From the NCBI GenBank assembly GCA_036510395.1, contig DATCDZ010000152.1, forward strand, positions 4,325 through 68,324: DNA of 64,000 bases. The letters are read 5' to 3'. Under the pieces are notes generated by a model. That model was not told where the DNA came from and ran no database searches. It was given only the letters and a program-made list of their open reading frames with translations. The position numbers were made by a program, and so were the translations under genes. This stretch comes from Verrucomicrobiia bacterium. GTDB taxonomy: Bacteria > Verrucomicrobiota > Verrucomicrobiia > Limisphaerales > UBA11358. Positions 2,649 through 14,328 of the stretch are shown one piece after another (positions within the stretch are counted from its first letter, which is position 1; every line of letters starts with the position of its first letter).

Positions 2649-2666
2649 TTGTTAATTCCTTTCCAA

Positions 2667-4136
2667 TTATTGTGAAACCGACAGCACGTTGCCTTCATTG
2701 TCCAAGTTGATGTTTCCATATCTGACGCCGGTGACCGAATCCAGCCAGTCGGCAAAGGTGTAATCGTAAGTTGAGCGCGTGCTTGGCTGCGCGAATTGGT
2801 TGACAATCGGGCTTAATCCAAGCAAAACATCCCAACCGTCGGACAAACCGTCGCCGCTGGTGTTATAGACGTTCGGATCGGATTTTGAAACCAGCAGTTC
2901 GTAAGCATCTGTCAATCCGTCGCCGTCTGAATCTTTAGGCGTCCCTAGAATCAGGAAACACGCCGTGCTTGGCAGGTTTGTCAGGGTATAGATGTTTCCG
3001 TGGTAGCCCTGTCCCATCCACGCCCAAGGCATTCCGGTTGGGCCGAATGACAGGACTGAATTTGCAAAGACATCATACGGCACGCCGTCGGAGCCTCCCT
3101 GAATTGTGAACGTCATCGCCATTCCGCCGTTGGTAACGCTGGTGGTGACATTTGTAATCCAAATATTGGTGCTGGTGATGGCGGAAACCGAGCCGACAAG
3201 CTGCAAGCCGCCCTGTCCGGTGATGGCGTCATAATAGGTCGGCGAACCGGACGGATTTGAAGGTTCGGAAACGATGTTTTCCATCGCCGTGTTCCAAGGA
3301 TTGATCTCGTAATAGGTGTAATACCAGTCAAAAATGGTTTGAACATCGTTGGAACTCAGCGGGTAATTGTAGGTGGCCACGGTGTTGAACATCCCGTGAG
3401 CCTGATTGGTTCCACTGCTCGAACTGCCAATCCAGAACCCGTTGGCCAGAACATCGGGGCCGGGATAAACCGTCACTCCGGGGCCGTTGGTGGCCAGCAC
3501 GCCGTCCAGATACAAGGCCGTATTCGTCGGCGAATATGTCAGCGCAACAAAATGGAAATAGTTGGTCGTCCATGAAATCGGGGCGGAAAGGTAGGTCGTG
3601 ATGCTGTCAGACAAGTCGTTGGTCTGTGCGGCAAAATAAATGTTGTTTCCGCCTTCATCCACAAAAATACTCCACCAGCCATAGCTGTTATCATCCGTGT
3701 AGCTGCCGACTTCAATCAGGCGTCCGTATTGGCCCAGTCCCGTTCCGCCCGCATTCGTGCTCGACCAGGATGATGGCGCGAACCAAAAAGTAACGGTGCC
3801 TGAATCAACCGTCAGGTTTGTGGTTCCGTCATTTTCATAGACGTTATATTGCAACCAAGCCGGGACATTGGTGTCCACGACGAGGGATGAGCCGTTGCCA
3901 AGATGTGAGTAGTTTAGGTTGGTGAACGAAACCGGCGCGTAGCCGGCGTCGCTTGTCCAGTTGGTACTGTCATAAAATGACCACGAATCCAGCGGCGCGT
4001 TTGTCGGCCCATATCCACCGCCGCCGGATGGCGGCACTTGTGCATGAGCCGTCCCTGCCAGAGAATAGAGCAGCATTGCAGGGATGATCAGCCGGATTAA
4101 CTGATAGTTCAATTTAATGTGATTAACAGTTTTCAT
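2667..4136 (-). CDS. Secreted LamG/ConA-like lectin-domain protein with C-terminal Asp-rich (TSP3-like) repeats
   Basis: 489-aa ORF with an N-terminal hydrophobic signal (LIIPAMLLYSLAGTAHA). LamG-like pattern: GTVTFWFAPSSW...YFHFVALTYSPTNTALYLDGVL...GFWIGS. C-terminal DSDGDGLTDAYE and SGDGLSDGWD repeats. It stops 18 nt upstream of the start of feature 1 on the same strand. Confidence 0.75.
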   Translation of the reverse strand: MKTVNHIKLNYQLIRLIIPAMLLYSLAGTAHAQVPPSGGGGYGPTNAPLDSWSFYDSTNWTSDAGYAPVSFTNLNYSHLGNGSSLVVDTNVPAWLQYNVYENDGTTNLTVDSGTVTFWFAPSSWSSTNAGGTGLGQYGRLIEVGSYTDDNSYGWWSIFVDEGGNNIYFAAQTNDLSDSITTYLSAPISWTTNYFHFVALTYSPTNTALYLDGVLATNGPGVTVYPGPDVLANGFWIGSSSSGTNQAHGMFNTVATYNYPLSSNDVQTIFDWYYTYYEINPWNTAMENIVSEPSNPSGSPTYYDAITGQGGLQLVGSVSAITSTNIWITNVTTSVTNGGMAMTFTIQGGSDGVPYDVFANSVLSFGPTGMPWAWMGQGYHGNIYTLTNLPSTACFLILGTPKDSDGDGLTDAYELLVSKSDPNVYNTSGDGLSDGWDVLLGLSPIVNQFAQPSTRSTYDYTFADWLDSVTGVRYGNINLDNEGNVLSVSQ

Positions 4137-4302
4137 AGATTACCTTTTGGAAGTTGGCTCCCCTTTTGCACCCGCAGCGTGGCTGGATTCGCCAGATTCA
4201 TCTGACCATAAAATCTTGCAACATGAGTCCCCGTTGAGTCCAGAGGTTTTCTGTGACTTTGAGGAAACATTTACCCGACAATTATTATAGCAATGTATCC
4301 CG

Positions 4303-4581
4303 TTGTCAATCATCTTTCCCCATGAGTTCAAAATTCGCGTCTGGCACGCTTCGGGGGTGGCGAAAAAAACACTCCAGTTCAACATCCGCATGTCCGAGGA
4401 ACAGCGCACGGAATTGGAAGCCATGTGCCGCCGCCGCCGCCGTCCGTTGAGCTTCCAAGTGGAACATCTGATTGCCTTGGCTAAACTGCTCATTGAATTT
4501 TGCGATGGCAACGATGATCTGGAAATTGCGCGTGAACGGCTGGCCGCTGCCAAAAAGCGTTTGCCAAAAAAGGGCAGTTGA
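4303..4581 (+). CDS. Ribbon-helix-helix (CopG/MobC-like) DNA-binding protein; probable true start GTG 4357
   Basis: KKTLQFNIRMSEEQRTELEAMCRRRRRPLSFQVEHLIALA fits the strand-helix-helix pattern of RHH proteins. The competing antisense ORF 4140-4658 has no recognisable features. Confidence 0.45.
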   Translation: MSIIFPHEFKIRVWHASGVAKKTLQFNIRMSEEQRTELEAMCRRRRRPLSFQVEHLIALAKLLIEFCDGNDDLEIARERLAAAKKRLPKKGS

Positions 4582-4654
4582 ATCGCAACTGAAACATTTC
4601 GCCCACACCTTTCTAAAAAGTGCGCTTCCCGATTAAATTGTTGGAATAGGTTGG

Positions 4655-5077
4655 TCATGCCGTTGCGGTTTCTTCGACGAGGGAAAGAATGCGGGAAAGG
4701 AAATCCTGCGTGTCAAATGGCTTCTCAATGAAATCCGCTGCACCAAGGTCAAGGCCACGCTGCTGATTTTCAATACTGGCATTTCCGGCCACAAATACAA
4801 TTGGTGTTTCCGCGAGGCGGGGGATTTGCCTCAAACGCGTGAACAGGTCGAACCCACTGCTGCCGGGCATTTCAAGGTCAAGGGTGATTAAATCGAACAC
4901 TTGCGTTTGAGCCAGACGCAAAGCTTTTTCGGCATCCAAAGCTCCTTGTGTTTCGCAACCGGCTCGTGTCAGCAGAAATCGCATCATCGTCACCACGGCC
5001 ATTTGGTCGTCCACCACCAGAATTTTCGCTTTAGCTGTCATAAACCCGTGTCGTGAAGATTTGTTATCAGTTTTCAA
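4655..5077 (-). CDS. Stand-alone CheY-like receiver-domain response regulator
   Basis: KILVVDD...FDLITLDLEMPGSSG...PIVFVAG...ADFIEKPF. The probable start is ATG at 5041 (MTAKAKILVVDD). Confidence 0.85.
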   Translation of the reverse strand: MKTDNKSSRHGFMTAKAKILVVDDQMAVVTMMRFLLTRAGCETQGALDAEKALRLAQTQVFDLITLDLEMPGSSGFDLFTRLRQIPRLAETPIVFVAGNASIENQQRGLDLGAADFIEKPFDTQDFLSRILSLVEETATA

Positions 5078-5143
5078 ATCGAAGTCAACACTGTTCTCTT
5101 AAAAGAACAGAAGTTTCCGGCACTGACCTAGCCTTTAATCTGG

Positions 5144-5449
5144 ATGACTGCTCCGCTCAATCTCGTCGGCCCCCAGGTGCGGCGATTTCGCATCAAGAAA
5201 CATTGCACGCAGGAAGCACTGGCGGCCAAGCTGCAAGTCGAGGGCTGGGATGTCAGCCGCGAATCGCTGGCCAAGCTGGAATCGCAATTCCGCCGGGTGC
5301 CGGATTGCGAATTGCTGTTTCTGGCCAAAGTTCTCGGTGTCGAGGTCATGGATTTATTTCCGGCCAAACCGGATTTGAAAAAACTCGACCCGGCGTTGCG
5401 CCTGAAAGTGTCCACCAAATTTCCCCGCCGCAAGTCCCGCCGTTCGTAG
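5144..5449 (+). CDS. XRE-family helix-turn-helix transcriptional regulator
   Basis: VGPQVRRFRIKKHCTQEALAAKLQVEGWDVSRESLAKLESQFRRVPDCELLFLAKVLGVEVMDLF is a typical HTH_3/Cro-C1 pattern. Confidence 0.8.
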   Translation: MTAPLNLVGPQVRRFRIKKHCTQEALAAKLQVEGWDVSRESLAKLESQFRRVPDCELLFLAKVLGVEVMDLFPAKPDLKKLDPALRLKVSTKFPRRKSRRS

Positions 5450-5519
5450 GCGATGATTTTCTGGGTTCCGATTTCTTCCTGTTTCCCCCCCGCGCTCATT
5501 TGGCTGGCGCGGCTGCGCT

Positions 5520-5543
5520 CCTGAAAACAAGAGTGTTTTCAGG
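5520..5543. terminator. Hairpin between convergent genes (possible bidirectional terminator)
   Basis: Perfect 9-bp stem CCTGAAAAC / GTTTTCAGG with a 6-nt loop, lying between the 5449 stop (+) and the 5580 stop (-). No U-tract. Confidence 0.35.
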
Positions 5544-5579
5544 AACCTTGGATTCGCTTGGGGAAAGGGATGCGGCAAA

Positions 5580-6548
5580 CTATTTTGCCGGGTTGTTGGT
5601 GGCTTGCGCCTGATTTTCACCGTCCGGAAGCAAGTGCCGGATTTGTTTTTGGGAGACGCTGCTGCGAAAGAAAATACAGCCATTATTTTGTCCGTTGACC
5701 TGACGCATATCAGCGGCGTAAGCGCCTTCAATCACCAGCACAAATCCCGGTGGACTGGCAAAGCTGTCATTTTGCGTCGGCAACACTTTGATGGGAATTT
5801 GGGCAACGGCCAGCATGTGAAACGCCACCTGATTGAATTGCATGACCTGCGCCATGTCATCAATTTGGATGGCCATTTTGCGGTCGTAGCGGGCGGCAAG
5901 CTCCAAACTAATCAGGCAGGCAATGAGAAGAGCCGCCCCCATGCTCCAAAAAAAACTGGTGGTCCAAGCGGTTTTCCAAATTCGTTTCGTCCATTCGGAC
6001 TTGGCTTCATCGGCGGCATCCTGAATTTTCTCCAGCGTTGGCATGACCTTCCAAGCCAGATCGTTTGTATGCTGCACGAACGGCGCGATGATTTTCTGGT
6101 TGATGCCGGATTGAATCGAGTTTTGAATCCCCTGCACGATGGCCTTGGTGTCCACCTGTGCGCCAAGATTTTTCATCGTCAATTCAATGGCCGCAATGGT
6201 TTCATCGCATTTTTCTTGGGTTGCGCGGCAAAGCTCGTCGGTCTTTTCGGCGTGATCCGTGATGTTGGCATCGCGGGTTTCAATCGTTTTGGCGAGCAAA
6301 CTAACTTCGTCGCGCAGTTCCTGAAAGGTCGCCAGCGAATCGGCGTTGGCCGAAATCATCCGGGCGGGGATGCGTTCGGCGTAATGGGCATACACGTCCA
6401 GCACGAGAAAAAGCTGGCTAAAAAACTGCGTGCTGTCGCCGTCGGCGAAGCGATAATAAACCGCCCGCGCCAGCTCCCGCTTTTCAGCGGGATAGGCGGC
6501 AAGCATTTCTTCAAACAATTCGGATTCGGGCATAACATCTCCTTTCAA
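5580..6548 (-). CDS. Hypothetical coiled-coil protein with one central TM segment (third gene of the ParA-like operon)
   Basis: 322-aa ORF whose start overlaps the upstream stop by 4 nt. The N-terminal half is helical and acidic; the hydrophobic segment is TTSFFWSMGAALLIACLISL. I recognise no family. Confidence 0.6.
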   Translation of the reverse strand: MKGDVMPESELFEEMLAAYPAEKRELARAVYYRFADGDSTQFFSQLFLVLDVYAHYAERIPARMISANADSLATFQELRDEVSLLAKTIETRDANITDHAEKTDELCRATQEKCDETIAAIELTMKNLGAQVDTKAIVQGIQNSIQSGINQKIIAPFVQHTNDLAWKVMPTLEKIQDAADEAKSEWTKRIWKTAWTTSFFWSMGAALLIACLISLELAARYDRKMAIQIDDMAQVMQFNQVAFHMLAVAQIPIKVLPTQNDSFASPPGFVLVIEGAYAADMRQVNGQNNGCIFFRSSVSQKQIRHLLPDGENQAQATNNPAK

Positions 6549-7372
6549 TTCGTGAGATTCACTTTCGCGCCGCGCTTGGCTGAAAATGGTTCGCCGATGG
6601 GCGGCGCGGTTTTAGGTTTGATGGTGGCCGCTTCAACGGCGGGCAACAGCTTGGCGGCAATCTGGTCGTATTGATTGAACATGGTGGCGAGCCAGTCCTG
6701 CAACACGCCCCGCGCCATGATGTCGAGGCCGAGCGAGTCGTTGCCGATGGCTTCATTGAACGGGATGCCGCGCTGATGGTCGGCCTCTAACTTCGCCAGC
6801 CGAAGCTTCACAAATTCCGACAGCACCGGCACGGTGATGGTCACTGCACCGCAGTCGAGCAATTCCTTTTCCATCGGGCTGTTGTCAAACATTCTGGTTT
6901 TGGATGCCCGCGCCGGATTACGGACAATGACATAATCCACCTGCCTGCCGCAGAACTGGCAGACGGCGGCAAGATTGGTCATCACGTCCAAGTCATCGAA
7001 TGGAAACACCATGAGCGTGATGCCGATGTTCTGCGTGGCGGCGATGTCAAAGAAATGCGTGGCCGATAACGCCTTCATCAGTTGCGCGTCCAGATGCGCC
7101 CGTGGGTCAATCAGGGTGACGGGTTGGGCGGTCGTCTTTCGCAGAATCAAAATGAGTTCGTCCAAGTCTTCGGCCTGGCCGTTTAGCGGTATGAGTTTGA
7201 CCTGGCCGGGGAATAATCGGGACAGAGTGCGGTTGTCGCCGTCCAGATCAAATCCCTGCCACGGGAGGCCACGTTGGTTAAGCCAGCACGCGCGGGCGGT
7301 GGCTTCGATGCTTTTGCCCATGTTACCTTTGGCCTGCATGGGCAGAATCAGGCGATGTTTTATAGTTTTCAT
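6545..7372 (-). CDS. ParA/MinD-superfamily P-loop ATPase (plasmid TraL/MobD-like)
   Basis: Deviant Walker A near the N-terminus (PMQAKGNMGKS), a size of 275 aa, and 4-nt overlaps with both neighbouring genes. Confidence 0.65.
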   Translation of the reverse strand: MKTIKHRLILPMQAKGNMGKSIEATARACWLNQRGLPWQGFDLDGDNRTLSRLFPGQVKLIPLNGQAEDLDELILILRKTTAQPVTLIDPRAHLDAQLMKALSATHFFDIAATQNIGITLMVFPFDDLDVMTNLAAVCQFCGRQVDYVIVRNPARASKTRMFDNSPMEKELLDCGAVTITVPVLSEFVKLRLAKLEADHQRGIPFNEAIGNDSLGLDIMARGVLQDWLATMFNQYDQIAAKLLPAVEAATIKPKTAPPIGEPFSAKRGAKVNLTN

Positions 7373-7716
7373 ATTGGGAGGTTATTGAACTGATATGGAT
7401 TATCTGTTTTGGTTGTTGTTGTTGCTGCCTGCGCCGGCGTCGGTGCCGATGCAGATGGATTCACCGTGTCCGGCTGTGCCGTCACCGCTTCGTTTTCCCA
7501 ATGAGACTGCGCCTGACGTTTCAGGTAGCGCCGGTAGAACTGGTGCAATCCCTGAAACGTGATGACGCAATCCTTTTCGGTGCGCAGCCGGGCGGCGATT
7601 TCCTGCCACGTTCGGCGCTGCTGGCGTTGCTCGCGGATAAACTCCGCGAACGCTTCGAGGCGGCTGCGATAAGCGCGTCCGCCGCCACGCCGTTTAATTT
7701 TGATTTCCGAATCCAT
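7369..7716 (-). CDS. Small basic putative DNA-binding protein (first gene of the operon divergent from the relaxase operon)
   Basis: 115 aa. The Arg-rich N-terminus RRGGGRAYRSRLEAFAEFIREQRQQRRTWQEIAARL is HTH-like. It sits next to the GTTGAA iteron array. Confidence 0.5.
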   Translation of the reverse strand: MDSEIKIKRRGGGRAYRSRLEAFAEFIREQRQQRRTWQEIAARLRTEKDCVITFQGLHQFYRRYLKRQAQSHWENEAVTAQPDTVNPSASAPTPAQAATTTTKTDNPYQFNNLPI

Positions 7717-7750
7717 TCGCCACCAGTTTAGGCCAGCCGATGGCGGTTGC

Positions 7751-7795
7751 GTTAGCGAGTAGTGGGCGGGTTAAGCAGGAAAGTGGGCGAGTTAA
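7751..7795 (-). promoter_or_regulatory. Element-specific conserved box (full copy 7751-7773 plus half copy 7782-7795) upstream of the 7716 operon
   Basis: Read in the gene direction: TTAACTCGCCCACT-n7-TTAACCCGCCCACTACTCGCTAAC, ending 34 nt before the ATG. The 23-nt core is identical to 14060-14082 and near-identical to 9631-9649. Confidence 0.55.
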
Positions 7796-7815
7796 ACGCG
7801 ATAGCGTTTTTACCT

Positions 7816-7916
7816 GTTGAAAGGCGTTGAATCGCCGGGTTGAAACCGGTTGAACGGTGTTGAACCGTGACGTTGAAAGGTGTTGAATCGCGTTGAATTC
7901 ATCAACGCTTTTCAAC
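7816..7916. repeat. Iteron array: 8 direct GTTGAA repeats plus inverted copies
   Basis: GTTGAA starts at 7816, 7826, 7839, 7849, 7859, 7872, 7882 and 7892 (spacing 10/13/10/10/13/10/10 nt). TTCAAC follows at 7911, with a GTTGAT-type inverted variant at 7902-7907. The sub-repeat GTTGAAAGG(C/T)GTTGAATCGC occurs twice. Confidence 0.85.
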
Positions 7917-8230
7917 GCAATTTTTCATGGCGTCCGGCGCGCAACCGAGAACCTACGATTTTTCGTAGGGGTGGGGCGTCCACCTTTTAAGCTGACGAAT
8001 AGGAAGCTAAACAATTGATTAAATACCGGGCGATTAGCGTTGAATCGGAATGTTGCAAATGAATTACCACCATGATGAATTTCAGTCGGATGCAACTGAA
8101 ACGGATGATTTAGGAATCACGTTTGGGAAAGATTGAACCGGCATACGTTTCAAAACCGATGATAATTTCTTAACGGGAATTGGTGATGAAAATTCAACCC
8201 GTATATCAGCATTGATTACCGTCAGCACTG

Positions 8231-8301
8231 AATGGCCGTTTCAGAAACCGGAGCGAAACGAAACGGATGAGCAGAGGAGCGCGGTTTTTGAAACGGCCAT
8301 T
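8231..8301. repeat. 20-bp inverted repeat (19/20 match) with a 31-nt spacer
   Basis: AATGGCCGTTTCAGAAACCG (8231-8250) pairs with CGGTTTTTGAAACGGCCATT (8282-8301). Confidence 0.8.
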
Positions 8302-8332
8302 GAGTGCGTCACCGGATAGGTTTGAATCACGC

Positions 8333-8408
8333 GGCGTTTAGTCTGTCCGGTTTCCGAGAGCCGCAGGAAAGCCGAACAGTCTAAACGCCGTTGCCGCATA
8401 TTGTGGAT
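8333..8408 (+). other. Candidate oriT core: imperfect hairpin followed by a nic-like GCATATTGTGGAT
   Basis: GGCGTTTAGTCTGT (8333-8346) pairs with ACAGTCTAAACGCC (8376-8389) at 13/14 positions. GCATATTGTGGAT lies 6 nt downstream (8396-8408). As I recall, the R388/TrwC nic region is GGTGCGTATTGTCT/AT just 3' of a hairpin. The resemblance is weak. Confidence 0.3.
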
Positions 8409-8464
8409 TGTGTTTCAGAGCGATTCTGAATTCAAAAATTCAGGCAGGCTCGCCGATGGGTTAC

Positions 8465-8943
8465 GGGAAAGGATGGGGCAAGCGGTGACTGAATTCTGCC
8501 GGAAATCCAAGCCAAAAGCCTTTTTCATTTTGTTCCAAAATGGAACGAAGCTGCCCAGGCAATCTGGAAAAATACTGCCAATGGTGACATTCGTTTTTGC
8601 AAAGTTTGCAGGAGCGGAGCCGGTTGTTCCGCGAGAATGTCAGCCGAAAAAATAAACCAACGTGACGCATGAAAAATAAATCCGAAAAATGGCGGCAGAC
8701 TGGCCGATGGTTTTTGGGGAAAGGACGGAGCCATGAACGGCCAAATTCCGCCGGGAATGAATGCCGCAAGTGCTTTTCACTTTGTTTCATTTTGAAACAA
8801 TTACCACTGCCTGTTCTGCCAGAATGGTTCCATGAATTTATATTTCGACCAAGTTGCGGGAAAGGATTGGGTCAGGCGGTCGTTGAATTCCGCCGTGAAT
8901 CCAGACCGGAAAAAAAATTCATTTTGTTCATGGGGTGAACAAA
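8465..8943 (+). repeat. Three dispersed ~85-nt U-repeats (8465-8546, 8717-8800, 8858-8943), each ending in a hairpin
   Basis: Shared skeleton: GGGAAAGGA..GG...AATTC.GCCG.GAAT...TTTCA.TTTGTT-hairpin. The terminal hairpins are GTTCC-aaaat-GGAAC, (TT)GTTTC-atttt-GAAAC(AA) and (TTT)GTTCA-tgggg-TGAAC(AAA). Confidence 0.8.
8608..8710 (+). repeat. V-repeat copy 1 (paralogue of the leader and first codons of the 9183 gene)
   Basis: GCAGGAGCGGAGCCGGTTGTTCCGCGAGAATGTCAGCCGAAAAAATAAACC..GTGACGCATGAAAAATAAA...CTGGCCGATGG aligns with 9117-9222. It contains the hairpin GCGGA-n9-TCCGC followed by a GAGAAT -10-like hexamer. Confidence 0.75.
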
Positions 8944-9116
8944 GCGGCTTCGCCAATCCGATAAGATGCCGCCAAATAACAGCCATGAAAAATGACAGCC
9001 AAAAAAATCATTGTGGCAAAAGTGGTGGCTTCATCCTGTGTGTTTTCCGCACTGGATCGCCCGCAAACTCTGCCAAAGTGGGAGCCGTTGGGAAAATTCG
9101 AGTTGTGCAATGGGCT

Positions 9117-9222
9117 GCACAAGCGGAGCCGGAATTTCCGCTAGAATGTCTGCCGGAAACATAAATAAACCGTAGGTGACGTATGAATAATGAAGCGCCA
9201 AACAACCTCGCTGGCCGGATGG
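9117..9222 (+). repeat. V-repeat copy 2 = probable promoter/leader and 5' end of the 9183 gene
   Basis: GCACAAGCGGAGCCGGAATTTCCGCTAGAATGTCTGCCGGAAACATAAATAAACC..GTGACGTATGAATAATGAA...CTGGCCGGATGG. It has the same GCGGA-n9-TCCGC hairpin and a TAGAAT hexamer. Confidence 0.75.
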
Positions 9223-9605
9223 AAAAAGAGATTCGCGTCAAGCCTGGAAAAAATAAAGAAGCAGCAGAACAGCGAGCCAGTGCCGTTTATGTGCTCAACA
9301 ACGAACTCAAGGCGATCTTGAATCTGAACCGGCCACCGGCGCGTTTGAACACGGCGCAGACCGCCGCCTACCTCGGCTTCAAACCGCATGACATCCCGGT
9401 GCTGGCCGCGCGGGGATTCCTCAAGCCGTTGGGCGACCCGATGCCCAACAGCGATAAATACTATGCGCGGGCAAGGGTGCTGGAACGGTTGGACGATGAG
9501 GAATGGCTGTCACTGGCAACAGCGGCCTTGAGCCAGCATTGGCAGAAGAAAAACGCCAGCAAAACCAAAAAGCGGAATGGTCATGCCCGGCCAGTTAAAA
9601 AATGA
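9183..9605 (+). CDS. Helix-turn-helix (excisionase/MerR-like) protein, putative relaxosome accessory factor
   Basis: LNTAQTAAYLGFKPHDIPVLAARGFLKPLG resembles excisionase-family HTH_17 proteins. It lies immediately upstream of the relaxase on the same strand and has a basic C-terminal tail. Confidence 0.6.
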   Translation: MNNEAPNNLAGRMEKEIRVKPGKNKEAAEQRASAVYVLNNELKAILNLNRPPARLNTAQTAAYLGFKPHDIPVLAARGFLKPLGDPMPNSDKYYARARVLERLDDEEWLSLATAALSQHWQKKNASKTKKRNGHARPVKK

Positions 9606-9630
9606 ACTATTCGGTTTAACCACGACCAAC

Positions 9631-9649
9631 TCGCCCACTACCCGCTAAC
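9631..9649 (+). promoter_or_regulatory. Element-specific conserved box upstream of the relaxase gene
   Basis: TCGCCCACTACCCGCTAAC ends 33 nt before ATG 9683. It has the same orientation relative to its gene as the copies at 7751 and 14060. A degenerate upstream half-site is TTAACCACGACC. Confidence 0.55.
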
Positions 9650-9682
9650 GCGGGAAATGCGTTTTGATTTACGCTGGCGGCC

Positions 9683-12649
9683 ATGCTTGCACCGAAAGCC
9701 CAATACAACCCGGTTGACGCCAAAAAGTATTTCAAGGAACACCTGGCGGTCGGCGATTATTATGCCGAGGGGCAGACCGTTCCCGGCCAATGGATCGGCA
9801 AGGACGCGGAAGATTTGGGCTTGTCCGGCGTAACCACCACCGATGAGTTTGTCCGGCTCTGCGACAATCTCCATCCGCAAACCGGCGAACGGCTGACACT
9901 CCGGCAAAAAACCACGCGGATTGAAAAGGGGATTGATGGCGAAGAACGGCAAGCCGCCAATCGCCGGGTTTTTTACGATTTCACTTTTTCCCCGCCCAAA
10001 TCGGTTTCCATTGCCGCGCTGGTCGGCAACGACGCTCGGATTGTCGAGGCGCATGAGCAGGCCGTGACGGTGGCCATGCACCAGTTGCAAACCTTCGCGG
10101 CAACGCGCGTGCGGAAAAACGATGAATGCACGGACCGGCATACAGGCAACCTCGTGGCCGCGATGTTCCGGCATGACACCTCGCGCGCTTTAGACCCGCA
10201 TCTGCATACGCATTGCATCGTGTTCAACGCCACGTTTGACGCGGTGGAAAAGCAATGGAAGGCATTGCAGAACCATGAAATGTTCGCCGCGCAAAAATTT
10301 GTCGAGAATGTTTATTACCATGAACTCACGCGCGAAATGGTGAAGTGCGGCTATCAGATTGAAAACAAACCGCGCGGCGATTTTGAAATCAAGGGCGTCG
10401 CGTCGGAACTGATTGACAGGTTTTCCAAGCGGCACCGGGAGATTGACCGGAAAACCAGGGAACTGCTGGCGCGTGAACCGGAAAAGGCGGGCGACAACAT
10501 TGCGGCGATTCGGGAGAACATCGCGCACAAGGACCGGCCACGGAAAATCCGGGACATCGGTTTGGAAAAATTGCAAACGCTGTGGGACGGCCAGATGACA
10601 GCGGGCGAAAGGGCTTCGCTGGATGGGCTGACGGTGAAGCCGTCCGTCGCGCCCGTTTCCAGCGAGAAGATTTGCGAGCAGGCCGTGACGTGGGCGGAGC
10701 AACACCTGTTTGAACGTCATTCCATCGTCCATGAGCATGAACTGTGGCGGCACGCGCTGGAACGCGTCAGAGGGCAGGACGTTTTACTGGCGGACATTCA
10801 GGCCGTCACTCAAAAACGCGGCTATCTGCACTTCGACGAGCATCCCGGCAAGGTTTCCACGCGGGAGCATCTTGAACGTGAAATGGAAATTGTCCAGAAG
10901 GCCAAAGAGGGGATTGGCGAATGTCATCCGCTGGTCTGGCAACCGAAGCCCTTCAATCCCATGTTGGATGGGGAACAGCGCGAAGCCCTCGCCGCGCTGG
11001 TTTCCAATCGTAACCGGGTCGCGGTCTTTCGTGGCGGTGCCGGCACGGGCAAAAGTTTCGTGCTGCGCGAGCTGGTCGGGCAAATCCGCGACGGCGGGCG
11101 CGGCGTAGTCGTCCTCGCGCCGCAACGCCAGCAAGTGCTGGACATGGAACGGGACGGCTTTCCGTCGCCGCTGACGGTTGCCAGTTTTCTGCAAAAGAAA
11201 GAACTCCAAGAGGGAACGGTGGTGATCGTGGACGAGGCCGGGCAGATTGGGGGCAAGCCGATGTTGGAACTGCTCCGGCTGGTTTCTGAACGCAATGCGC
11301 GGCTGATTTTGTCGGGGGACACGCGCCAGCATGGGGCGGTTGAGGCGGGGGACGCGCTGCGGGCGATTGAAAAACATTCCGGCGTCTCGCCAGTGGAATT
11401 GACCAACATCCGCCGCCAGAATCCGGCGCTGGCGAAGTCAATCGAGGAGCGCAAGCATATCAAGGAATACCGTCAGGCCGTCGAGGCAGCGCGTGACGGC
11501 AAGTTCGCGGAATCGTTTGCACGGCTGGACAAATTGAAAGCGATTGAGTCCTGCACGCTGGCCGACAAGCATGAAAAGCTGACGGCGCGTTATCTGCAAC
11601 TGGTGAAAGATCATCAGTCCACCGTGGTCGTCTCGCAAAGCTGGAATGAGATTCACCAGGTCAACGACGCGATTCGTGTTGCGCTTAAAAATGAAAAGCT
11701 CGTCGGCGAAGCGGAAACCACGGTCACGGCATTTCAGCCGGTGGATTTGACGGAAGCGCAAAAGCGCGATGTCCGTTCTTATGATGCCAATACGGTGCTG
11801 GTGTTCAATCGTGACGTGCGCGGGTTCAAGGCCGGTGAATCGGCGCGGTTGAAATTGATTACCGACACGCATTTGCTGGTGGAAACGGACACGCGCATCG
11901 TCCCCATTTCCTTCAAGCAGTTGGACAAGCTGACGGCCTGCCAGCGCAAGGAATTGGCTTTGGCCGCTGGCGACAAGCTGCAACTCAAGGCGAATGGCCG
12001 CAGCGTGGAAAACCGCAAGCTGGTCAACGGCGAACTGGTCACGGTCAAGGCGGTCCAGCCTGACGGCCGCATTGCACTGGCGGATGGCAGGGTCTTGGAT
12101 AAAAACTTCCGGCAGTTCGTCCGGGGCTACGCCATCACGTCCTATGCGTCACAAGGCAAGTCGGTGGAACACGTTTTGTTTTCGGATTCGGCGGCGAAGG
12201 CCGCGACGAACCAGCAGCAATGGTATGTCACGATTTCGCGCGGCAAAAAGGGGATTCATATTTTCACCACGGACAAGGAGCAGTTGCGGGAGAACATCAC
12301 GCGCAGCGGGGATCGCCCATCGGTGGTGGATGTGCTGATGGCACATTACCGGAAACATGATTCGTTTTTTCGCATGATTGAACGGAGTTGGGGAACGCGG
12401 CTGGCGCTCACCATGACCAACAGCAAACGCGCCAGAGAATTTCGCGCGCTGCGCCAGCGGCAAAACCAAAGTCAGGCGCAAGCGCAAACTGAAACGATCA
12501 AGCAAACGGTTGAATCCAATGAGCCGCGCCAGCAACCCGTCCAGCCACCGGCGCAAAGCCACATGGCTGAAACCACGGAGCCGAAAATCAAGCCGCACCT
12601 GATTTTCCCGGAAGTCCCGAAAAAACAGTCGCGCGGTTACAGGCCGTGA
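9683..12649 (+). CDS. MobF-family relaxase (TrwC/TraI-like) fused to a RecD-like helicase
   Basis: N-terminus: DAKKYFKEHLAVGDYYAEG...GQWIGKDAEDLGLSG. Histidine triad: HDTSRALDPHLHTHCIVFNATF. Walker A: FRGGAGTGKS, with LILSGDTRQHGAVEAG. C-terminal helicase motif: ITSYASQGKSVEHVL...YVTISRGKKGIHIFT. Confidence 0.9.
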   Translation: MLAPKAQYNPVDAKKYFKEHLAVGDYYAEGQTVPGQWIGKDAEDLGLSGVTTTDEFVRLCDNLHPQTGERLTLRQKTTRIEKGIDGEERQAANRRVFYDFTFSPPKSVSIAALVGNDARIVEAHEQAVTVAMHQLQTFAATRVRKNDECTDRHTGNLVAAMFRHDTSRALDPHLHTHCIVFNATFDAVEKQWKALQNHEMFAAQKFVENVYYHELTREMVKCGYQIENKPRGDFEIKGVASELIDRFSKRHREIDRKTRELLAREPEKAGDNIAAIRENIAHKDRPRKIRDIGLEKLQTLWDGQMTAGERASLDGLTVKPSVAPVSSEKICEQAVTWAEQHLFERHSIVHEHELWRHALERVRGQDVLLADIQAVTQKRGYLHFDEHPGKVSTREHLEREMEIVQKAKEGIGECHPLVWQPKPFNPMLDGEQREALAALVSNRNRVAVFRGGAGTGKSFVLRELVGQIRDGGRGVVVLAPQRQQVLDMERDGFPSPLTVASFLQKKELQEGTVVIVDEAGQIGGKPMLELLRLVSERNARLILSGDTRQHGAVEAGDALRAIEKHSGVSPVELTNIRRQNPALAKSIEERKHIKEYRQAVEAARDGKFAESFARLDKLKAIESCTLADKHEKLTARYLQLVKDHQSTVVVSQSWNEIHQVNDAIRVALKNEKLVGEAETTVTAFQPVDLTEAQKRDVRSYDANTVLVFNRDVRGFKAGESARLKLITDTHLLVETDTRIVPISFKQLDKLTACQRKELALAAGDKLQLKANGRSVENRKLVNGELVTVKAVQPDGRIALADGRVLDKNFRQFVRGYAITSYASQGKSVEHVLFSDSAAKAATNQQQWYVTISRGKKGIHIFTTDKEQLRENITRSGDRPSVVDVLMAHYRKHDSFFRMIERSWGTRLALTMTNSKRAREFRALRQRQNQSQAQAQTETIKQTVESNEPRQQPVQPPAQSHMAETTEPKIKPHLIFPEVPKKQSRGYRP

Positions 12650-12656
12650 ACGGCGG

Positions 12657-12950
12657 TCAGTCCAGCGGGTAATCGTCGTGGTCATAATAGTCCGGCGGTT
12701 CCCACAACGGCGGGGCAAACGGTGGTGGTGGTGGCGTTCCCGGCAATTGAATGAAAATCGCTGGCCGGACGTGGGACATGGGTTTTCCTCTCTTTGGTCG
12801 CAATGCGCCGCATAATACCCACACCAAAAGAGCCAGCAAAAGATAGATGGCTCCGATGAGAAAATAGAGCGCATGGTCGTGAACGAATCCGTCAAGGTGT
12901 TTCAATCCCGACGTTTCCAGTTCGAGTGCCTTAATTTGCCAAGGTTGCAT
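12657..12950 (-). CDS. Small membrane protein with a Pro-rich acidic tail (hypothetical)
   Basis: Preferred start is ATG 12950, preceded by GGAGGA (12955-12960) directly after the integrase stop. TM segment: YFLIGAIYLLLALLVWVLCGAL. Tail: PPPPPFAPPLWEPPDYYDHDDYPLD. The track start at 13007 would overlap the integrase. Confidence 0.5.
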   Translation of the reverse strand: MQPWQIKALELETSGLKHLDGFVHDHALYFLIGAIYLLLALLVWVLCGALRPKRGKPMSHVRPAIFIQLPGTPPPPPFAPPLWEPPDYYDHDDYPLD

Positions 12951-12960
12951 GGTGTCCTCC

Positions 12961-14034
12961 TTATGCGGCAACGGCTTTCGCCGCTGGTTCGGGGTTGTGG
13001 CTTCCAATAATCACCTTCTGTTGCCGCTCGTATTCGCTCAAGGAAGGCATTTCCACCGGCGCTTTGCGGGAATAGGCCCGCGTCATGGCCTTGCTGTTGT
13101 GGCCAAGATTCACCTGGGCATACCGTTCGGGATAGCCCGCCGTTTTTGCCCGTTCTGCCCACGCGTAACGGTAGCTGTGCAGCGAGACGCCTTTGATGCC
13201 AAGTCCATCGCAGCGTTGTTTGAACTCCGTGGCGCGGTCACCAGAGCGCACGGTTCGCATATATGGAAACAAGGGGCCGCTCCCCGGCAAGTCGCGCAGG
13301 ATTTCCGCCATGTCTTCATCAAAACGCATGATGGCAATCGAGCCGGTCTTCTGGCGCGCATAGCTGATGACGTGGTGTTCCCAATCAACGTCCTCGGCGT
13401 TCAAGCCCGCCAGATCGGATTGCGATGCGCCCAAGTGCCACGCCAGTTTGTAGAACGCCTTGCGTTCGGGATTGTTCTCGCGGGCGACGATGGCCAGATG
13501 TTCCGCCAGCGTGATGCCGCGCTTCTCTTTGAACTCGACGGCGGGCCACTGGCGTTTCGGCACCAGCGGCCACGGCAGCCAGTTCATGTCCACGCAGAAA
13601 TTGTGCAACCGCCGGAGATAAACATTCGTCGAGACGGTTCCCATTTGCAGGACTTTCAGAATCGCTTCGCCCTTGCTTTCGATGATGACCTGCGGCAAGA
13701 GCATCGCCAGTGCCTTGTCCTTCGCGGCGGTTTTCCAGCGATGTTGATTCGCTCCCTGCTTGGTGCCAATCAACGACTCAATGGCGTTCTGCCATGTCCG
13801 CGTGGTCAAGCCCGTGTCCGAACCGGCCAGATACGCCTTGGCGATTTGCAGGTTAAGAACGGGCTGGCGTTCGGAGTTGTTCTTGGCCGCGACAACCTGC
13901 TTGGCATCGTCCTCATTGGCCGTGCCGAGACTGGTGCGCTTGCCGGTGCTGGTGTCCACGCAATAAAACTTATTGCCCCGGATACCACGACGAATTAAGC
14001 GATAACGTGTTTTCATAGTATTACGCAATCGCAA
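12961..14034 (-). CDS. int: Tyrosine recombinase / phage-type integrase
   Basis: C-terminal catalytic region: GVSLHSYRYAWAERA...NLGHNSKAMTRAYSR. The likely true start is ATG 14016 (MKTRYRLIRRG), since 14034 is a TTG. It lies 155 nt from the tRNA-Cys 3' end. Confidence 0.9.
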   Translation of the reverse strand: MRLRNTMKTRYRLIRRGIRGNKFYCVDTSTGKRTSLGTANEDDAKQVVAAKNNSERQPVLNLQIAKAYLAGSDTGLTTRTWQNAIESLIGTKQGANQHRWKTAAKDKALAMLLPQVIIESKGEAILKVLQMGTVSTNVYLRRLHNFCVDMNWLPWPLVPKRQWPAVEFKEKRGITLAEHLAIVARENNPERKAFYKLAWHLGASQSDLAGLNAEDVDWEHHVISYARQKTGSIAIMRFDEDMAEILRDLPGSGPLFPYMRTVRSGDRATEFKQRCDGLGIKGVSLHSYRYAWAERAKTAGYPERYAQVNLGHNSKAMTRAYSRKAPVEMPSLSEYERQQKVIIGSHNPEPAAKAVAA

Positions 14035-14059: not shown

Positions 14060-14082
14060 GTTAGCGAGTAGTGGGCGGGTTA
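14060..14082 (-). promoter_or_regulatory. Element-specific conserved box upstream of the integrase
   Basis: GTTAGCGAGTAGTGGGCGGGTTA is identical over 23 nt to 7751-7773. In the gene direction it is TAACCCGCCCACTACTCGCTAAC, ending 43 nt before ATG 14016. Confidence 0.55.
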
Positions 14083-14188
14083 GTGCCGGTTACGCTAGAT
14101 TCTAACGGAGTAGATAAACTGGTGTCCGTTCTGGTGTCCTTTGACACCCTCGCACCTCTTAAACCATTGCTGCAATAACAGTTAGGAA

Positions 14189-14263
14189 TGGAGGCGGGAG
14201 TCGGAATCGAACCGACGAATGCAGCTTTTGCAGAGCCGTGCCTTACCACTTGGCTACCCCGCC
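14189..14263 (-). tRNA. tRNA-Cys (anticodon GCA), CCA encoded
   Basis: The reverse complement GGCGGGGTAGCCAAGTGGTAAGGCACGGCTCTGCAAAAGCTGCATTCGTCGGTTCGATTCCGACTCCCGCCTCCA folds by hand into a cloverleaf. It has a 7-bp acceptor stem, anticodon loop CUGCAAA and T-arm GTCGG-TTCGATT-CCGAC. Confidence 0.93.
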
Positions 14264-14328
14264 ACAGGGATTGTGAGTTTAATTTTCTTTCGCGTCCGAA
14301 TCAAGCTAAGTTTCGGCTCGACCACTTC

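Follow-up and report, generated by a model that had tools for sequence, protein, structure and literature searches.

A tandem array of promoter-like modules with self-complementary palindromes upstream of an excisionase-like gene in a putative mobilizable element of Verrucomicrobiia

In class II promoters of the CRP/FNR type, such as E. coli galP1, the FNR promoters and those of Thermus SdrP, a palindrome stands at a fixed spacing over the -35 region, centered about 41 bp upstream, and a poor or absent -35 hexamer is combined with reliance on an extended -10 element. Here, we describe a repeat array that may have a similar arrangement in a 64,000-nucleotide (nt) stretch of DNA (the window, to which all coordinates refer) from a metagenome-assembled genome of a Verrucomicrobiia bacterium (assembly GCA_036510395.1, contig DATCDZ010000152.1). 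The array lies on the + strand in front of a gene for a 140-amino-acid (aa) protein, which is followed by a relaxase gene. Its conserved core is a 62-nt module in which a stem-loop, or palindrome, is followed at a fixed distance by a box resembling a -10 element. We favor, with moderate confidence, the reading that the region is a tandem array of activator-type extended -10 promoters whose palindromic upstream sites are kept self-complementary.

SdrP is a class II activator whose reported site, TTGTG(N)9CNC, overlaps the -35 position or lies next to it; its half-site TTGTG and its N9 spacing match the modules, which is a likeness of possible mechanism and not of membership (PMC8465061). Unlike the class II CRP/FNR-type promoters, the modules keep the inner positions of the spacer complementary without conserving them, and they occur with both N9 and N10. 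Half of the module sites read TTGTT...AACAA, 2-7 copies stand in tandem before one gene, and the binder of the modules is putative.

A second comparison is with the regions around the origin of transfer (oriT) in F and R388. As with traM and sbmA-C of F and with PtrwA and the TrwA sites of R388, the array is placed between an oriT-like region and the gene for a small DNA-binding protein that precedes the relaxase gene. The stbABC operon of R388 is mirrored by a divergent operon with iterons and a ParA-like ATPase. In contrast to both systems, the protein of this element is Xis/MerR-like and not ribbon-helix-helix, and the repeats are whole promoter copies with palindromes and not short sites.

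The factor-dependent promoters of recombination directionality factor (RDF) genes in integrative elements share with the modules poor basal elements and an inverted repeat just upstream of the -35 position. Like rdfS of ICEMlSymR7A and the CTnDOT system (PE with RteC), the element has an excisionase-like gene upstream of a relaxase gene; the two are directly adjacent, which recalls rdfS-rlxS of ICEMlSymR7A, and RdfS is among the structural matches of the 140-aa protein. The RDF promoter sequences are unrelated to the modules, however, and to our knowledge no tandem array has been described for the rdfS or CTnDOT systems.

Frpo (F, ColIb-P9), ssoA/ssoU and the G4- and phiX-type ssi sites share with the array hairpins near oriT that are orientation-specific, sometimes multi-copy and provided with promoter-like boxes for host RNA polymerase. 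These are long imperfect hairpins of 100-300 nt with both hexamers, or multi-hairpin primase sites, whereas the modules have a stem of 6-10 bp with the -10 box outside it, show no strand bias, and have their last copy at a normal promoter distance from a gene. The array was not assigned to the Frpo or ssoA type because its box lies 21 nt outside the stem and an outer 8-bp helix pairs part of the box in a subset of modules only. The promoters of the N4 virion RNA polymerase have a stem of 5-7 bp and a small loop, extruded from duplex DNA and recognized by structure plus a few bases, and three early promoters stand in tandem. The N4 hairpin differs in being centered at about -12 on the template strand and in needing the phage single-subunit polymerase and host single-strand-binding protein; the element encodes no such polymerase, and the box of the modules is sigma-70-like.

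We know of no described equivalent of the array. In kind, it is a variant of known promoter-operator architecture and not a new class of element, unless its hairpins act in single-stranded or extruded DNA. If the promoter reading is true, stacked and duplicated factor-dependent promoters govern the gene that probably triggers excision and transfer in very small integrated mobilizable elements. Changes in promoter copy number between close relatives would then be a simple, evolvable way of tuning a threshold, and the array would give a rare look at promoter architecture in uncultivated Verrucomicrobia.

Anatomy of the array and its modules

A first-pass annotation of this DNA, made from the letters alone, had described a thrice-repeated unit ending in a stem-loop. 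The three units are present where it placed them, as repeats of about 130 nt (8430-8560, 8681-8812 and 8823-8955), which align over this length with 73% mean column identity and give nhmmer E-values of about 1e-30 between copies. Their terminal stem-loops are also as it described them: GTTCC/GGAAC at 8532-8546, TTGTTTC/GAAACAA at 8782-8800 and TTTGTTCA/TGAACAAA at 8923-8943. The number three applies to the units only, as a covariance model finds five hairpin modules in the window, and the two further ones lie at 8579-8640 and 9092-9149. The -10-like box, 21 nt after the window hairpins, was absent from the annotation as well. The features of the array, all on the + strand, are as follows.

8426-8443, palindrome CTGAATTCAAAAATTCAG, at the start of the first unit (sequence and 42-copy alignment)
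8469-8504, decayed module copy in unit 1, AAGGATGGGGCAAGCGGTGACTGAATTCTGCCGGAA (local alignment to the consensus 39; reached by 0/500 shuffles)
8514-8575, module M1 (covariance model 58.9 bits); stem TTGTTCC/GGAACGA at 8530-8548, 21-nt spacer, -10-like AAAAAT at 8568-8573 after TGg
8579-8640, module M2 (43.8 bits; three-way junction fold, z = -2.6); stem TGCAA/TTGCA at 8598-8610, -10-like GAGAAT at 8633-8638, outer inverted repeat TGACATTC (8585-8592) / GAATGTCA (8635-8642)
8641-8716, decayed copy of the gene leader, with ATG at 8669 and first codons, then GGCAGACTGGCCGATGG (80% identity of 8560-8700 with 9070-9210; repeats D2 and D4)
8726-8757, decayed module copy in unit 2 (local alignment 30; reached by 0/500 shuffles)
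8766-8827, module M3 (53.3 bits); stem TTGTTTCA/TGAAACAA at 8782-8800, -10-like CAGAAT at 8820-8825 after TGc
8862-8912, decayed module copy in unit 3 (local alignment 23; reached by 4/500 shuffles)
8908-8969, module M4 (59.3 bits); stem TTTGTTCA/TGAACAAA at 8923-8943, -10-like TAAGAT at 8962-8967
8970-9091, decayed leader and start copy GCCATGAAAAATGACAGCC (ATG 8985) and decayed -10 region CTCTGCCAAAGTGGGAGCC (about 9069-9087) (repeats D8, D10 and D17; upstream alignment of the relatives; weak module matches at about -102 in many loci)
9092-9149, module M5, at the expected promoter position of the downstream gene (42.9 bits); stem TTGTGCA/TGCACAA at 9103-9122, spacer palindrome GCGGA..TCCGC, -10-like TAGAAT at 9142-9147

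Related loci, 99 in all, were fetched via the 140-aa protein, for which there are 148 homologues; peat and bog metagenomes are the source of many relatives. The unit of about 130 nt was found upstream of the gene in about 60 of the 99 loci, always on the gene's strand; among all nhmmer matches of the module in relatives, 300 of 302 are on this strand. The palindrome CTGAATTCAAAAATTCAG starts the first unit in most relatives, as judged from an alignment of 42 copies. What is conserved within the unit is the 62-nt module, made up of an A/T-rich run, TTCAyTTTGT, the stem-loop or 19-20-nt palindrome, a 21-nt spacer and a box nAnAAT after YGn. The covariance model of this module matches the 64-kb window at M1 to M5 and nowhere else. 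Across the 99 loci it gives 206 matches, each on the same strand as the gene and no farther than about 1.1 kb upstream of it, and the number of modules per locus is 2-7 among relatives. In nearly all loci with a full-length gene, 34-35 nt separate the end of the last module from the ATG, and AGGTGA lies in between. In the window, the M5 box ends 35 nt before the ATG, and the Shine-Dalgarno sequence AGGTGA lies between the two.

In and just before the -10-like box, G-14, A-11 and T-7 are each found in 107 of 107 unique modules, A-8 in 100 and A-9 in 97, and position -15 is T in 61 and C in 44. The conserved positions are those that characterize an extended -10 element, and they are as conserved in the 76 distal copies as in the 31 proximal ones, despite spacers that have diverged past recognition. 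From the last stem base to the box, the distance is 21 nt in 100/107 modules and 20 nt in the other 7. The spacer sequence is wholly different between module types while its length stays at 21 nt, and this fixed distance despite unrelated spacers indicates that palindrome and box are coupled. The modules have the sequence features of a sigma-70 extended -10 promoter (T or C at -15, G-14, A-11, T-7 and a workable distance to the start codon), and the proximal module stands at a suitable distance from the ribosome-binding site and start codon in every relative. No credible -35 hexamer was found, the best candidates having 3-4 of 6 matches at 20-bp spacing. A terminator scan found no terminator-like site between the modules and the gene.

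If the promoter reading is correct, each intact module would consist of an A/T-rich run, a 19-20-bp palindrome TTGTK-N9/10-MACAA centered at about -41, no usable -35 hexamer and an extended -10 element (YG n nAnAAT). It would serve as a sigma-70-type promoter that needs a symmetric (dimeric) DNA-binding regulator on the palindrome, in the geometry of class II activation. The array would then determine how strongly, or from what threshold, the protein that initiates excision and transfer is expressed. One candidate for the palindrome binder would be the element's own 140-aa protein. A CRP/FNR-type domain was found in none of the 12 open reading frames (ORFs) scanned between 2.7 and 15.5 kb, and none was called in about 20 kb around the minimal relatives of the element.

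The gene served by the array (9183-9605, + strand) encodes a protein with no Pfam or NCBIfam match, and no Pfam domain is on record among the matches listed for its 148 homologues. Its AlphaFold model has predicted local distance difference test (pLDDT) values of 70-86 over residues 50-130, and has an excisionase/BldC/MerR-type winged-helix core (residues ~50-105) followed by a long basic helix. With Foldseek, BldC, mycobacteriophage Pukovnik Xis, RdfS and NmlR were each matched over about 50-67 residues with a probability of 0.97-1.0. BldC and Pukovnik Xis had target template modeling (TM) scores of 0.74-0.83, the RdfS excisionase had 0.56-0.60, and the MerR-type NmlR had 0.31-0.33. On this structural model, the product is a DNA-binding protein of the Xis/BldC/RdfS/MerR-like kind, and for such a product tight factor-dependent control would be expected.

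Several points weigh against the promoter reading. The center of the palindrome falls at -41 or -42, the class II activator position, if transcription starts about 7 nt after the box, and this start is assumed. Both N9 and N10 palindromes occur in the proximal promoters of close relatives. With the Thermus CRP/FNR protein SdrP, a 1-bp change in spacing abolished measurable binding in vitro (PMC8465061). No further TTGTK-N9/10-MACAA with the module architecture was found in the other 63 kb of the window, where one extra site occurred at chance level, and there is therefore no sign of a host regulon. A palindrome in duplex DNA with a symmetric protein on it would account for the spacing, the position and the missing strand bias, but a plain dimer site leaves unexplained that inner positions without a preferred base remain complementary, and that several variants of the palindrome are present within one element. 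Lastly, the outer repeat and three-way junction of a subset of modules hint at folding as a single strand.

Other promoter types were considered and rejected. A sigma-54 promoter (-24/-12) on the 3' arm (TGGAAC-N5-TGCC) has its GG/GC spacing off by one, and the arm is not conserved. A promoter of an extracytoplasmic function (ECF) sigma factor, with the 'AAC' -35 motif, is contradicted by CAC in half of the modules and by the lack of a conserved ECF-type -10 at 16-17 nt downstream. A Bacteroidetes-type -7 motif TAnnTTTG in TTCATTTTG has C and not A at its second position, with no -33 TTTG. A promoter upstream of the hairpin (-35 CTGCCA, -10 GACATT) is possible in one module subfamily only and leaves the invariant A-8 and T-7 unexplained. 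The dyad that would make a MerR-type promoter with a 20-bp spacer, GCGGA-N9-TCCGC, is found in one module type only.

Two further foldings were observed in some of the modules. A subset carries an outer 8-bp inverted repeat (TGACATTC/GAATGTCA, GGACATTC/GAATGTCC and GGGCATTC/GAATGCCC; two of the variants are compensatory), in which sequence flanking the palindrome on its upstream side is paired with the final four bases of the -10 box and four further bases (e.g., L031:3906-3975 and L072:3926-3990). Together with the palindrome and the spacer dyad, it is predicted to form a three-way junction in single-stranded DNA, with z = -3.7 and -4.4. The outer helix GGACATTC/GAATGTCC was rejected as a universal third element because only a subset of modules has the helix and the window's proximal module is without it. 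In modules with an AAAAT loop (window 8524-8548), the upstream conserved motif TTCATTTTG can pair with CAAAATGGAA, from the loop and 3' arm, in an alternative hairpin that excludes the main stem. This hairpin is a perfect 10 bp in locus L022 (938-998), where a TTTC to TTCC change improves the pairing. The M3 loop, ATTTT, is the inverse of an AAAAT loop on the same stem in locus L020.

Symmetry of the palindromes and its possible meanings

The compensatory change in the stem, which the first-pass annotation saw in three copies, is borne out well beyond them among the modules of relatives. In an alignment of 68 distinct modules from relatives, fitted to the covariance model and including many modules related by descent, 98.5% of cells pair, and the corresponding values are 77% for shuffles and 31-56% when partners are slid. 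At the inner stem positions it is self-complementarity and not sequence that is preserved, each having two or three pair types: the inner pairs are UA 38 and GC 30, then CG 42 and UA 25, then AU 36, CG 27 and GC 5, with none unpaired. A regex-based count on 87 unique modules and a MAFFT alignment agree with this picture. Of these modules, 68 have the form TTGTK-N9-MACAA and 19 have N10, and the outer half-sites TTGT/ACAA are almost invariant. The K:M pairs are GC in 46, TA in 39 and TC in 2. At N1:N9 there are 51 CG, 30 TA and six non-Watson-Crick pairs (CA 5, TG 1), and at N2:N8 there are 55 AT, 24 CG, 5 GC and three others. N3:N7 is paired in 61/87 and N4:N6 is unpaired. Loop length ranges from 3 to 6 nt and the stem from 6 to 10 bp.

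The kind of mismatch that is tolerated bears on whether the stem acts in RNA or in DNA. At N1-N3 of the 87 modules, G.T or T.G was found 9 times and A.C or C.A 14 times. A structured RNA would generally tolerate G.U far above A.C, and no such preference is present, though the helix covaries. The lack of an excess of G.T over A.C is thus as expected of a palindrome in duplex DNA and not of an RNA stem. The perfect inner symmetry may mean that the arms need transient pairing, as a hairpin or cruciform. Just as well, it may result from the correction of quasi-palindromes by template switching, which during replication perfects imperfect inverted repeats without selection on structure (PMC7202029). 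Compensatory change in a promoter-side DNA palindrome is not by itself evidence of RNA structure, and the balance of G.T against A.C and the spacing to DNA signals should be checked.

One alternative is that transcription runs through the array, beginning at its upstream end or at each module, and that the stem-loops act in the RNA as stabilizers, processing or protein-binding sites, weak factor-dependent terminators or the ends of small RNAs made per unit. The covariation of the stem is in keeping with this, as is the location of every copy on the sense strand of the gene; transcripts of upstream modules, if these fire, must include the downstream hairpins. The unit bodies also contain conserved GGA-rich motifs (GGGAAAGGA), and the outermost stem pairs are often T.G. 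However, among the inner pairs, which are well defined, G.T mismatches are no more frequent than A.C. The reading accounts neither for the exact spacing of 21 nt from a -10 box of DNA type nor for the invariance of A-11, T-7 and G-14, and the proximal hairpin lies upstream of the predicted start of its own promoter. The stems are not followed by a U-tract, as the first-pass annotation had noted when it set simple terminators aside: there is no T-run, and the terminator scan of 8400-9180 was empty. An intrinsic terminator does not fit the stems, which are A/T-rich and followed by AAGCGG, AAAGC or AATTAC, or on the other strand by AAAATGAA. With Rfam 15, the only gathering-level match in the window is a tRNA, and none was obtained in 8400-9180 even at E <= 10. 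Folds of whole units reach a z of only -1.3 to -1.9, and in the fold of the 42-copy alignment no other helix of the unit covaries.

This last result also removes the second, weaker hairpin that had been proposed around AATTC. The alignment columns of its 5' arms are not homologous among the three copies, and with the 42 copies RNAalifold gives no covarying helix there. The suggestion of repeated small-RNA modules fares little better: with no G.T bias, a stem whose spacing to the box is locked, a stem upstream of the box's predicted start, no Rfam match and ordinary folds, we rate the RNA reading as very unlikely. The annotation had been right to distrust the ORFs of the region. By frame, indel and periodicity tests, the units are non-coding: among 42 copies from relatives, any one frame is open in at most 15, there is no codon periodicity, and the gaps comprise 139 of one base, 22 of two and 5 of three. 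These tests give no support to a conserved protein encoded in the repeats, the finding that would have undone the structural claim.

Two suggestions of the first-pass annotation, a site for a structure-specific protein and a single-strand priming signal, stand as rivals of the promoter reading, which is simpler and which it did not consider. The main rival explanation is that the modules are signals in single-stranded DNA. Hairpins on the transferred or displaced strand, with the conserved box, would recruit host RNA polymerase or primase and would prime the complementary strand or early transcription after entry, as redundant single-strand origins or initiation sites or as single-strand promoters. 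The single orientation of all copies is what strand-specific signals predict, the complementarity of the arms is kept whatever the sequence, with a loop of 3-6 nt, and the three-way junction of some modules puts part of the -10 box in a helix. The array also directly adjoins a double inverted repeat (8225-8390) with compensatory changes, next to two + strand motifs similar to the R388 nic region. It would enter the recipient first if the + strand is transferred, and minimal relatives encode no primase, so that priming by the host would be needed. Set against this, the stems have no bias of G.T over A.C and are short and A/T-rich, and the outer helix is missing in many modules, including the window's proximal one. 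Because the -10 box on the + strand is on the non-template strand, the + strand alone gives no template for rightward synthesis. Frpo-type single-strand promoters reportedly hold the -35 and -10 elements within one long hairpin, and the array modules do not. By the gene order of R388, the transferred strand would leave away from the relaxase operon and the array would enter last, not first; the nic assignment itself is a resemblance only. Taken together, we find the single-strand reading doubtful, although if the hairpins do act in single-stranded DNA they would be a new and compact kind of single-strand promoter or origin.

A related view, which we hold to be unlikely, joins the hairpins to the promoter box. 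The palindromes would form extruded or single-stranded hairpins, making each module a structure-dependent promoter or priming site at which host RNA polymerase reads the adjacent -10 box. Such a module would be silent in relaxed duplex DNA and would be switched on when single-stranded or highly supercoiled, as in rolling-circle replication or just after transfer. If true, a family of minimal mobilizable elements of uncultivated Verrucomicrobia would carry 2-7 copies of a compact, sigma-70-linked equivalent of Frpo or of the N4 hairpin promoters.

The modules and their decayed copies could also be binding sites, decoys or a nucleation platform near oriT onto which a protein is loaded, either the 140-aa Xis/MerR-like protein or another accessory factor of the relaxosome, with the distal -10 boxes being incidental. 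In F, several TraM sites (sbmA-C) lie between nic and traM. The array has a comparable position between oriT-like repeats and the gene, and the 140-aa protein has an Xis/BldC-type fold; proteins of the BldC and Xis types bind DNA cooperatively, as multimers. Close relatives have between 2 and 7 copies, motifs containing GAAT/ATTC recur throughout the units, and the decayed copies are well conserved themselves. Pure binding sites do not predict, however, that the distal -10 positions are as strict as the proximal ones. BldC- and Xis-type proteins are known to bind direct repeats and not palindromes, and the palindromes vary within one element, whereas the helix-turn-helix of the 140-aa protein is almost invariant across the family. 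For these reasons protein loading appears quite unlikely as the main role of the array.

Possible origin of the array by duplication

The 120 nt before the gene, with leader and ATG included, are 80% identical to 8560-8680, and GGCAGACTGGCCGATGG, which comes after the pseudo-start there, is similar to codons 8-13 of the gene. From such sequence comparisons, 8.43-9.15 kb is best described as a nested stack of tandem duplications, each of them partial, of the promoter and leader of the 140-aa gene together with its first codons; five promoter modules have stayed intact amid drifting surroundings. The mid-unit sequence AAGGATGGGGCAAGCGGTGACTGAATTCTGCCGGAA aligns to the loop, 3' arm, spacer and box of the module consensus, with 0 of 500 shuffles as good. 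The skeleton that the first-pass annotation gave for its units, GGGAAAGGA ... AATTC.GCCG.GAAT ... TTTCA.TTTGTT, thus combines a dead module with a live one after it. In the decayed module copies, the palindrome and A-11 are both gone, a joint loss that counts in favor of the promoter reading.

Decayed copies of the leader and start follow M2 (ATG 8669, GTGACGCATGAAAAATAAATCC) and M4 (ATG 8985, GCCATGAAAAATGACAGCC). ORFs from the decayed starts (e.g., 8669-8938, 89 aa) cross the repeat units, and their reading frames are not conserved.

The surrounding element and a candidate oriT

The array region is a gene-free stretch of 1.46 kb (7717-9182). To its right lie the following features.

9183-9605, + strand, conserved gene for the 140-aa protein
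9683-12649, gene for a TrwC/MOBF relaxase-helicase (PF08751, E = 2.8e-85)
12961-14034, minus strand, gene for a tyrosine integrase
14189-14263, tRNA-Cys

To the left of the array, GTTGAA iterons are followed by three divergently transcribed genes, for a 115-aa protein, a ParA-like ATPase and a 322-aa protein. R388 has the same stbABC - oriT - trwABC layout, although the element in the window is without a coupling protein. Because of this layout we read the locus as a small integrated mobilizable element of a Verrucomicrobia genome, which agrees with the mobilizable setting that the first-pass annotation had supposed. The element is smaller still in some relatives, the minimal ones, where it appears to comprise the genes for the xis-like protein, the relaxase and the integrase plus about 0.8 kb of non-coding DNA, located at the same tRNA-Cys / IF-2B site. 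No repeat of at least 12 nt from the tRNA-Cys 3' end, of the kind expected of an attachment site, was found on comparing 14090-14300 with 1-13000 and 14400-64000, so the far end of the element cannot be placed in the window. A plasmid collection queried with 7700-9700 gave no match.

Two long inverted repeats adjoin the array on its left, at 8225-8307 (26-nt arms, 31-nt loop) and 8332-8390 (22-nt arms, 15-nt loop). This double inverted repeat is the best-conserved non-coding block of the element family, being 74-88% identical even in distant relatives. It is present in relatives whose protein is only 63-68% identical, and the arms of the first repeat show compensatory changes. On the + strand, nic-like motifs follow both repeats: GTGCGT-CACCGG-ATAG after the first (about 8305-8320) and GCATATTGTGGATT after the second (about 8396-8409). 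The R388 nic region used for comparison, GTGCGT-ATTGTCT/ATAG, was checked in sequence and is 100% identical in IncW plasmids. We regard 8225-8410 as a candidate oriT, with the nic assignment resting on resemblance to R388. A nic site of the relaxase (MOBF oriT) at the module hairpins was rejected, as the module types have wholly different sequences 3' of their hairpins.

In the minimal relatives L101-L103 (9185-15075 in L101), four modules lie in the non-coding DNA, and cobalt-transport genes directly flank the element. These three loci are without the stb-like genes and the double inverted repeat, of which no more than the final ~30 nt of the second repeat is left, together with the GCGTTTTGTGGATT motif.

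At least seven GTTGAA(A/T) iterons, spaced by 10-12 nt, lie at 7812-7900, upstream of the divergent operon of the 115-aa and ParA-like genes. R388 has its StbA-binding repeats at this position, which is also that of a type Ib partition centromere. At the left edge of this stb-like operon are an XRE-type HTH_3 gene (5144-5449, + strand, E = 3.8e-05) and a stand-alone response-regulator receiver gene (4655-5077, minus strand). The XRE gene is 97-98% identical in four related loci and is missing from others that retain the receiver gene, making it a candidate regulator or a variable accessory gene.

A motif of 21-24 nt occurs three times in the window, at 7752-7772 (+), 9628-9648 (-) and 14061-14081 (+), and reads AACCCGCCCACTACTCGCTAAC(GC) in gene orientation. 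Each copy lies upstream of a start codon, at about 30-35 nt from that of the 115-aa or the relaxase gene and at about 27 nt from that of the integrase gene. They differ by 0-2 mismatches, where 0 copies are expected by chance, and relatives also keep the motif downstream of their xis-like gene. The three operons seem to share it as an operator or promoter element, and it is possibly a target of the 140-aa protein.

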